NCBI GenBank assembly: GCA_964607295.1
Contig: CAZSJX010000007.1
Span: 18,026 to 82,025, forward strand
DNA: 64,000 nt
DNA from: an uncultured Treponema sp.
GTDB lineage: Bacteria; Spirochaetota; Spirochaetia; Treponematales; Treponemataceae
Direction: 5' to 3'
Part shown: positions 1,716-3,255 of the stretch, piece after piece
How positions within the stretch are numbered: the first letter of the stretch is position 1
Layout: each line of letters opens with the position of its first letter
Program-made: the position numbers and the translations under genes
Notes under the pieces: model-generated
Seen by the model: only the letters and a program-made list of their open reading frames with translations
Databases searched by the model: none
Told to the model about the DNA's origin: nothing

Positions 1716-2217
1716 GGAGCATGGCTCGCGGAGCTTGCGACCAGTTCAATCTGGGAGAACAATCAAATACGTAAAAACAAAAAAGGCATCCCTTTCGGAA
1801 TGCCTTTCCATTTACAATCAGATAGAACTAGCAGTTCTCTGCAAAGTATTTGATTGTGATAACCCAAAATGCGGGACGCTTACAGCATTTTGCGGAAGCA
1901 TAGCTTGCAGAGCTTGCGACCAGTTCAATCTGAGAGAACAATCAAATACGTAAAAACAAAAAAGGCACCCCTTTCGGAATGCACTTTATCTTCACGAATC
2001 AGTTAAAATTAGCAGTTCTCTGCAAAGTATTTGATTGTGATAACCCAAAATGCGGGACGCTTACAGCATTTTGCGGGAGCATAGCTCGCAGAGGTTGCGA
2101 CCAGTCGAAACAGAAAGAACAATCAAATACGCAAAAACAAAAAAGGCATCCCTTTCGGAATGCCTTTCCATTTACAATCAGATGGAACTAGCAGTTCTCT
2201 GCAAAGTATTTGATTGT
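1716..2217 (-). repeat. ~180 bp tandem repeat (about 2.8 units) containing the gap 3' end, its terminator and internal hairpins
   Basis: The gap tail (c/t)tagcagttctctgcaaagtatttgattgt recurs at 1828, 2009 and 2188 (period 179-181). The terminator and the agaacaatcaaatac motif recur in each unit. Confidence 0.95.
2133..2167 (-). terminator. Intrinsic terminator of gap (further copies near 1773-1807 and 1952-1987)
   Basis: On the minus strand: stem aaaggcattcc-gaaa-gggatgccttt followed by a T-rich run, about 20 nt after the gap stop. Confidence 0.8.
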
Positions 2218-3255
2218 TCTAACCATCTGAGAAGTATAGCTGTTCTCGTTGTCGTACCAAGAAACAACCTGTACTTCATAGAGGTCATCAGAAATCTGAG
2301 AAACCATTGTCTGTGTTGCATCGAACAAAGAACCGAATCTCATTCCGATTACGTCAGAAGAAACGATTTCATCTTCGTTGTATCCGAAAGATTCTGTTGC
2401 AGCAGCTTTCATTGCAGCATTGATAGCTTCTTTTGTAACTCCAGCTTTCTTTACAACAGCAGTAAGAATTGTTGTAGAGCCTGTTGGAACTGGAACACGC
2501 TGAGCTGAACCAATCAATTTTCCGTTCAATTCAGGAATTACAAGGCCGATAGCCTTTGCAGCTCCAGTTGAGTTTGGAACGATGTTCTGAGCGCCTGCGC
2601 GTGAGCGGCGGAGGTCGCCTTTGCGCTGTGGACCGTCAAGAATCATCTGGTCGCCAGTGTAAGCGTGGATTGTAGACATAATTCCGCTCTGGATTGGAGC
2701 ATAGTCATTCAATGCCTTAGCCATTGGAGCCAAGCAGTTTGTTGTGCATGATGCTGCGGAAATGATGTTGTCGTTCTTTGTGAGAGTCTTGTGGTTTACA
2801 TTGTAAACGATTGTAGGAAGGTCATTTCCTGCTGGAGCTGAAATTACAACTTTCTTTGCGCCTGCATCGATGTGTGCCTGTGATTTTGCCTTTGATACAT
2901 AGAAACCTGTACATTCAAGAACTACGTCTACGCCAATTTTTCCCCATGGGAGATTTGCAGCGTTAGCTTCCTTGTAGATTGTGATTTTCTTTCCGTCTAC
3001 AACGATAGCGCCTGGTTCTTTTACAGTTTTTCCGTCTTCAGCAAGAACGTCATCAATGTGAGAAACAGTGTGTTTTCCTTCACCGATTTTTCCCATGAAT
3101 CCGCCCTGTGCTGTGTCATATTTAAGAAGGTGAGCAAGCATTTTTGGGCTTGTAAGATCGTTGATAGCAACTACTTCATATCCGTCAGCTTCAAACATCT
3201 GGCGGAATGCAAGACGACCAATGCGGCCGAAACCGTTAATAGCAACTTTAACCAT
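2188..3255 (-). CDS. gap: Type I glyceraldehyde-3-phosphate dehydrogenase
   Basis: [11 protein letters not shown] Rossmann motif, catalytic [13 protein letters not shown]-terminal SWYDNE. Confidence 0.98.

Follow-up and report, generated by a model that had tools for sequence, protein, structure and literature searches.

The window analysed here, a stretch of 64,000 nucleotides from an uncultured Treponema sp., contains a short tandem array directly behind gap. The gap gene, the proposed docking target of the array units, lies on the minus strand at 2188..3255 and is a 355-aa ORF, 80–99% identical to the GAPDH of relatives. Its product is also 80–88% identical to the GAPDH of gut Bacteroidales and Clostridia, an unusually high value across phyla, which suggests that the gene itself may have been exchanged between phyla in the past.

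Tandem Repeats Finder placed the array at 1716–2224, as 2.8 copies of a 181-nt period with 88% matches. The array lies 19.7 kb within a 117-kb contig. On the gap (minus) strand, each unit consists of four elements in the order X, T, X' and M. X comprises the final 30–35 nt of gap (ACAATCAAATACTTTGCAGAGAACTGCTAG/TAA), stop codon included. T consists of a spacer and, behind it, an intrinsic-terminator-like hairpin, present in all three units (minus strand, 2169–2140, 1982–1965 and 1809–1780). X' (GTATTTGATTGTTCT) is 15 nt long and 100% complementary to gap 2206–2220, with 12 nt of perfect complementarity to the two downstream tail copies. M is about 75 nt and contains two hairpins, H1 and H2. 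The original prediction had described units of ~180 bp with this arrangement, X' being a perfect 15-nt reverse complement of gap codons near the stop and the middle unit being aberrant, and the description proved correct in every detail on reading of the strand.

Homology of the module end (..TGGGTTA) to gap (..ATGGTTA) starts at 2221..2224 on the minus strand, in the Met-Val codons (ATG GTT), and the putative crossover, GG|TT, is placed there. Unit 1 supplies the working gap tail. This tail, X1 (AGAACAATCAAATACTTTGCAGAGAACTGC with the TAG stop at 2188–2190), spans 2188..2220 and includes the arm, 2206–2220, that pairs with X'. The spacer and intrinsic terminator T1 occupy 2131..2187, with a predicted hairpin at 2140–2169 and a T tract. 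The inverted arm X'1 follows at 2116..2130, and M1 at 2044..2115, comprising a conserved linker, H1 (2086–2100) and H2 (arms 2066–2073 and 2046–2053, loop 2054–2065), with GG at its end. M1 scored 100.8 bits against R1, a covariance model of X'-M-X.

Units 2 and 3, also on the minus strand, begin with displaced copies of the tail, recognised by sequence reading and codon comparison; their X' arms were located by inverted-repeat search. In unit 2, X2 (TTATCACAATCAAATACTTTGCAGAGAACTGC with TAA rather than TAG; 2009..2043) is followed by a divergent spacer and terminator, T2 (1950..2008, hairpin 1965–1982), by X'2 (1935..1949), and by M2 (1863..1934), which has the linker, H1 and H2 (1865–1892) and scored 104.6 bits. 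Unit 3 comprises X3 (1828..1862, TAG stop at 1828–1830), a T1-type terminator T3 (1771..1827, hairpin 1780–1809; 91% identity to unit 1), X'3 (1756..1770), and a decayed M3* (1716..1755; only 45 bits) that retains the linker and H1 but neither H2 nor any oldest tail. By stop codon and terminator type, the order of the units is A-B-A.

The three units are ~90% alike, differing at about 10% of positions, and their tails are identical, so local duplication alone could have built this array. Genome searches found no array unit elsewhere in the 2.5-Mb genome, and the loop of the window's own H2 departs from the family consensus. For these reasons, the window array is probably a relic, partly amplified locally.

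Arrays behind gap vary across the genus

BLAST of relatives, and reading of the DNA downstream of their gap genes, revealed X-T-X'-M units in many congeneric species, with 0 to 4 units each. Model R1 was then used to search 338 genomes of the genus and matched in 75, with 1–3 matches per genome. Nearly all matches in the fetched loci lay directly behind gap, many of them at contig ends. Tail copies were counted in the same 338 genomes with a codon-degenerate pattern for the gap tail; at least two copies occurred in about 68 genomes, and up to 6–7 units in G350. Species with GAPDH ~99% identical to that of this genome differed in both the number and the type of units. At orthologous gap loci of other phyla (80–88% protein identity, mostly Bacteroidales and Clostridia), none of 80 carried tail copies.

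The internal order of the longer arrays was also informative. In G350, a block of three units is itself repeated, giving a higher-order repeat. Tail alleles were arranged in A-B-A order in 4 of the 11 arrays with at least three copies, which, like the order of the units in the window, fits re-insertion of an excised cassette at the first position. Tandem triplication of the final 16 nt of gap, stop included (GAACTGCTAAGTTCAC), is seen in G030 (L027, about 195–245) with no hairpin module, a different, slippage-like route to a repeated gene end. No description of the element was found in searches of the literature on Treponema integrons and on repeats and MITEs; this does not prove novelty, and the cassette family is apparently undescribed in Treponema.

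Tails, inverted arms and cargo are inherited together

Displaced tails were compared with working tails over the nine codons TIKYF(A/S)ENC. The comparison yielded 77 synonymous and 8 non-synonymous codon differences, where chance would give a synonymous share of 17% (p of about 1e-50). The silent differences included TCN/AGC serine switches, and one pair of neighbouring tails differed at 11 positions, all silent. Some displaced copies contained stops, frameshifts or heavy decay. That the differences are almost only synonymous indicates that the displaced copies evolved as working gene ends before they were displaced. Two explanations of the repeats were discarded on related grounds: a long target-site duplication, since neighbouring tails are diverged alleles, and a diversity-generating retroelement (DGR), since the changes are silent third-position changes that are not adenine-specific and no reverse transcriptase was present in the ORFs read beside the arrays.

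The X' arm was more complementary to the upstream X, across T, than to the downstream X, across M, in 37 cases against 8, with 8 ties. The original prediction had treated X'-M-X as an element with terminal inverted repeats. The 12-nt perfect arms are indeed present, but the better fit of X' to the upstream X argues against a transposon-like element. In G338, unit 1 carries two different tandem terminators split by a partial X' (AAAGTATT; L029, about 1450–1560), which hints that X' itself can serve as a recombination point.

Larger inserts were found in two genomes. The G218 insert is a block of 8.4 kb, bounded on one side by a tail copy and its terminator and on the other by the following X'-M; ORF reading with Pfam and NCBIfam assigned to it an ATPase, an HTH protein and a WYL/WCX regulator, besides several unknown proteins. 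A distinctive ACTCAT variant is common to X' and to the tail copy beyond this 8.4-kb cargo. In G235, a 9.6-kb islet of ordinary genes separates the working tail from a degenerate 75-nt tail copy. The joint inheritance of X and X', the silent history of the tails and the position of the cargo together show that the co-inherited unit is X-T-(cargo)-X'-M, which runs from the junction through the tail, stop and T, then optional cargo, to X' and M. The cassette border is that between M and X: the H2 3' foot (..GTG-GG) lies on one side of it and the T of GG|TT on the other.

Two near-identical metagenome strains provided a direct comparison of cassettes at one site. L203 and L204 had one mismatch in 343 nt upstream; their divergence starts at the base that follows GGT and extends to the end of T in unit 1, beyond which they are nearly identical again. 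Between species, cassette starts were 92% identical where the gap genes were 80% identical. We count these patterns as support for a movement of cassettes between lineages.

Two further types of insert were observed within displaced gap tails. Module N (CATTTTCGG..hairpin..CCGAAAATG..short hairpin..GAAGG) interrupts displaced gap-tail copies at positions that vary (L057 in G112; L058, 5250–5320 and 13980–14050, in G218; L060 in G186) and rejoins the tail at G|T sites. Another two-hairpin insert, of ~65 nt, lies between GA and AAACTGCTAA of displaced tails in unit 3 of L014 (G003) and in unit 3 of L058 (14070–14140, G218), which places it at the same codon in two distant species.

The H2 hairpin occurs at the ends of other genes

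H2 combines variable arms with a conserved loop. A second model, R2, was built for H2 alone from canonical copies, and it matched 163 of the 338 genomes, with tens of copies in some, counts that are inflated in part by an unrelated MITE carrying H2 as a passenger. Outside the genus, almost nothing was matched elsewhere in the order. The window's own H2, with its off-consensus loop, fell below the R2 threshold. Among viral contigs, one 17-mer match resembling H2 was found, within chance by a rough estimate, and none to a second loop variant.

Twenty H2 loci away from gap were read, with tRNAs verified by ARAGORN. Their layout was constant: a replacement gene end, followed at its far side by H2, abuts the old gene end ([replacement gene end ... 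H2] | old gene end). This layout was found at a second type of GAPDH gene (63-nt tail plus H2, period 102), at glnN (glutamine synthetase III), at the 3' end of a tRNA-Leu gene, and at an SBP gene and a GGDEF gene. At a tRNA-Thr gene, the cassette occupies the 5' end, on the strand opposite to the tRNA, and restores the tRNA's first 23 nt together with the upstream region. At one further locus, H2 is inserted alone, with a stop codon on one side and the terminator of that gene on the other. Several of the cassettes at other genes lack X' and H1.

The junction was always KG|T followed by T, A or C, and was seen at seven targets besides gap. G|TT occurs in this window, at glnN, at tRNA-Leu and in MITE copies; G|TA, at a second gap site, the second GAPDH, and the SBP and GGDEF genes, accounts for half of the junctions; and G|TC occurs at tRNA-Thr. 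Arrays terminate in the old tail and native terminator, not in H2, on which ground an origin of the first copy by template switching or slippage was rejected. The original prediction had called for a genome-wide search for M. No copy was found elsewhere in this genome, while M-type hairpins were present at other loci of the genus. An invariant array with M nowhere else, offered there as the sign of an old local duplication, is not what the genus presents: the array varies and M-type hairpins occur elsewhere.

The passenger copies of H2 were examined separately. A modular MITE with ends GGGGMTGTCCAAWAAGT...ACTTATTGGWCAKCCCC was found within terminator stems in G002 (L013, about 1790–2000, in the unit 3 terminator; L097, L098 and L099), and some of its copies have H2 inserted into one of the MITE's own hairpin loops. 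The outer stem of module N resembles a hairpin of this MITE. The H2-bearing form was read in G002, and dispersed R2 matches with identical scores occurred in G086 and G098; identical MITE copies probably account for the 58 and 42 R2 matches of these genomes, respectively.

Helix statistics resemble those of a DNA site

The original prediction of two hairpins in M was confirmed, with compensatory changes across species in both (10 of 13 pairs). In the H2 stem, 98.8% of 595 alignment cells were Watson-Crick paired, with 187 double changes and 4 G-U pairs, and none of 500 shuffles paired as well. Predicted single-strand folds were also more stable than those of shuffled sequences, both for X'-M-X (z = −3.8 to −4.5) and for X-T-X' (z = −6.4 in unit 1 and −2.8 in unit 2). 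Searches against Rfam returned matches at chance level only on the window array and none on the canonical H2 loci.

The evidence favours a site recognised as DNA over one recognised as RNA. This judgement draws on the 98.8% Watson-Crick stem, the position of the terminator before X' and M, the kilobase spacing of X and X', the antisense module upstream of a gene, the lack of an Rfam match, and the favourable folds of single-stranded DNA.

A sub-threshold match to the Rfam TD-1 family (42 bits against a gathering score of 64.5) was noted in G069 (L103, 1133–1275, minus strand). This motif lies ~100 nt downstream of the second-GAPDH cassette array, is distinct from H2 and is not an attC.

Candidate recombinases

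The array units encode no recombinase, and searches of the G218 and G235 cargo proteins against Pfam and NCBIfam identified none, several of these proteins receiving no assignment; specifically, neither a tyrosine nor a serine integrase is encoded by the units or the two cargo blocks. The integron integrase IntI was present in 106 of the 338 genomes and in 23 of the 75 that bear arrays (31% in both cases), and was absent from this genome and from G350 with its 7 units. The IS200-type Y1 transposase (Y1_Tnp) showed no association with H2, occurring in 6 of 16 H2-rich and 8 of 16 H2-free genomes, and an IS200/RAYT reading was rejected on this comparison. Just two tyrosine recombinases are encoded in this genome, each of them XerC/D-like. 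The best dif-like site in the genome, a putative dif (AATGCGTATAATGTGTATTATATTTAAA, contig C16), is unlike X and H2, and a Xer/dif reading was rejected accordingly.

Discussion

The original prediction proposed that the repeats behind gap may be scars of repeated integration that regenerate the 3' end of the gene. The comparative data support this proposal: copy number ranges from 0 to 7, the displaced tails are former working tails, cargo of 8.4 and 9.6 kb is present, and M-type hairpins occur at other genes. Comparison of the gap-downstream interval across relatives, suggested as a check on copy number and cargo, thus revealed both, the cargo being found in G218 and G235.

From these sequence comparisons we favour, with some reserve, a model of integron-like integrative mini-cassettes that restore the gene end they enter and accrete by site-specific recombination. 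Under this model, the window array would consist of three stacked mini-cassettes, none with an ORF, docked in the final codons of gap. Each cassette would comprise a replacement gene end, from the GG|TT junction through the stop, a terminator, optional cargo, X' and M, where M is made up of the linker, H1 and H2, and its 3' foot (..GTG-GG) would form the other end of the cassette. We infer that X'-M-X, as a circle or as folded single-stranded DNA, could adopt a three-way structure, and that a trans-acting site-specific enzyme would join the foot of H2 to the KG|T site of the target gene. An incoming cassette would bring a new working tail and terminator, and the former tail would be shifted downstream as a dead copy. 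Arrays could then be built and reshuffled by repeated insertion, by cassettes that are excised and inserted anew, and by ordinary recombination, unequal or homologous, between the conserved X and X'-M parts.

A rival reading is a purely local history, in which the gap end was duplicated long ago, the copies multiplied and became alike through slippage and unequal crossing-over, patches were swapped by homologous recombination after DNA uptake, and M was conserved for another function, with no site-specific system involved. The ~90% identity of the window units with their identical tails, the higher-order repeat in G350, and the failure to find a recombinase would all agree with such a history, as would the patch exchanged between L203 and L204, which is flanked by identical X and X'-M that may have served as homology arms. 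It leaves unexplained, however, why a hairpin of the same polarity, a KG|T junction and a gene-end copy recur at eight or more unrelated targets, including an antisense tRNA 5' end. Nor does it account for arrays that end in the old tail and native terminator rather than H2, for kilobase cargo in the cassette position, or for 11 all-silent differences between neighbouring tails. We consider a purely local origin unlikely. More improbable still is mis-assembly of a single unit into three. Many contigs of other assemblies do break at such arrays, but the window units differ at about 10% of positions, stop codon and terminator included, the array lies well inside its contig (19.7 kb into 117 kb), and multi-unit arrays occur in the single-contig genomes G073, G249 and G360. 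With the same architecture in more than 70 independent assemblies, single-contig genomes among them, an artefact is scarcely credible.

Could the units be integron cassettes in disguise, X'-M-X or H2 alone being an atypical attC that IntI inserted at secondary, attG-like G|WT sites? Insertion of cassettes by IntI at G|WT sites in genomes has been reported (bioRxiv 10.1101/2022.09.11.507474). A hairpin site at the 3' end of each cassette and ORF-less arrays in one orientation fit the logic of that system, the junction in the window, at glnN and at tRNA-Leu is G|TT, and IntI is carried by 106 of the 338 genomes. Yet the canonical attC of the genus (..ATAAC...GTTAGGC/GTTATGT) looks different, the R'' and R' boxes are absent, and whole-genome searches with R1 and R2 listed no match at the G360 integron array (about 716–735 kb). 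G|TA, the form at half of the junctions, falls outside G|WT, IntI is not statistically linked to the arrays (23/75 against 106/338), and neither this genome nor G350 has intI, all of which makes insertion by IntI quite improbable. The remaining proposal, that X' and M form a structured 3' UTR folding onto the gap mRNA tail, with effects on stability, RNase III cleavage or read-through and with the tail copies as by-products, was the other suggestion of the original prediction. It draws on the stable X-T-X' fold of unit 1 (z = −6.4), on hairpins conserved through compensatory changes, and on targets that include highly expressed genes. This reading is poorly supported, since X' and M lie past a strong terminator, G-U pairs are almost lacking among the 595 helix cells, and the module at tRNA-Thr is upstream and on the other strand. 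The X-X' distance of up to 8.4 kb, the copy number of 0–7 among species with the same gap gene and the lack of a matching Rfam family also count against it, and we regard an RNA device as very unlikely.

The mini-cassette model can be extended, tentatively, to an undescribed integron-like system of Treponema. In this possible system, a trans-acting enzyme would recognise a folded hairpin whose loop is conserved, namely H2, often accompanied by H1 and an inverted arm of the target, and would join the 3' foot of this hairpin to KG|T in highly conserved genes and tRNAs. Gene-less cassettes, with occasional kilobase cargo such as the WYL/ATPase block, would gather there and pass between species. 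As each cassette would bring its own gene end with a terminator or promoter, essential genes would be safe and would become universally present docking sites.

If the model holds, foreign DNA can be docked inside essential genes without harm, by means of cassettes of 100–180 bp, and the hairpin, which differs from attC, att and dif sites, would represent a new type of site, probably served by a new or re-purposed enzyme. Structure-specific DNA recombination is known from only a few systems (integrons, CTX-type IMEX and IS200/IS605), which this one would join, and it would offer a testable case for the origin and spread of hairpin-site cassettes, a long-standing question for integrons. In practical terms, the arrays break gut and rumen Treponema assemblies at gap and tRNA genes, and their variable content could act as a strain marker. 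The hairpin module and the gap docking site might become an integration tool for genetically difficult spirochaetes.

Comparison with known systems

With REP/BIME elements (RAYT) and MITEs, the Treponema hairpins share short, dispersed copies at gene ends, in tens per genome and confined to one lineage, and some H2 copies ride inside a MITE. They differ from REP/BIME in having no GTAG head and no link to a Y1 transposase, and in conserving the H2 loop while the arms vary. A MITE would have its own terminal inverted repeats and a short duplication. Here, the X'/X arms are derived from the target, X' tracks the upstream X, and there is no target-site duplication, the flanking repeat being a diverged allele of the gene end.

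Targeting of the 3' ends of tRNA or housekeeping genes with tandem accretion is known from integrative elements such as ICESt1 and ICESt3 and the cis-mobilizable CIME remnants at the fda 3' end of Streptococcus thermophilus. As in that type, the Treponema element brings a copy of the gene end, so that the gene stays intact and the old end remains as a direct repeat; target-end direct repeats in which the proximal copy completes the gene were found at gap, tRNA-Leu and tRNA-Thr. Successive elements likewise stack, and integrase-less remnants remain in the array. The Treponema units differ in being gene-less and only 100–180 bp long, in that one module serves many targets and a 5' gene end can also be regenerated, and in the absence of an integrase from units and cargo blocks; in the ICE/CIME type, at least the autonomous elements encode a tyrosine or serine integrase, and an autonomous member of the Treponema family may exist.

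In Xer-dependent IMEX such as the CTX phage, the target is dif, XerC/XerD binding sites lie in the attP arms, and the attP, as single-stranded DNA, adopts a forked-hairpin fold that imitates its target. The two inverted, target-like arms of the Treponema cassette, about 80–90 nt apart, could fold in a similar way to mimic the target duplex; the predicted folds are favourable and the helix statistics of the H2 alignment are DNA-like. Neither system needs an element-encoded recombinase, and both form tandem arrays at the target. The Treponema target, however, is not dif, and the arms are unlike the putative dif of this genome.

The attC sites of integron cassettes have R'' (RYYYAAC) and R' (GTTRRRY) boxes, L boxes and extrahelical bases, with the crossover at G|TT. 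Compared with the canonical attC read in the G360 integron, M and H2 have none of the R'', L'', L' and R' boxes, and the loop is conserved instead. In that integron (L094, 3060–12140), each attC is followed directly by an extra conserved hairpin, GGACGCCCGCACTGGGGCG. The Treponema units further differ from integron cassettes in carrying a replacement end for the gene that they enter, in docking inside essential genes and tRNAs, and in having no adjacent or linked intI in a genus whose own attC is of another type. The likeness to integron cassettes, including CALINs, which are cassette clusters that lack an integrase, and IntI-mediated insertions at genomic attG sites, lies in the small, promoter-less units arrayed in the same orientation, each ending in a hairpin site that is conserved in structure and variable in sequence, with the junction at its 3' foot next to G|T. 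Both include ORF-less members and can be inserted outside a dedicated platform, and the A-B-A duplications of Treponema cassettes are compatible with the excision and first-position re-insertion known for integrons.
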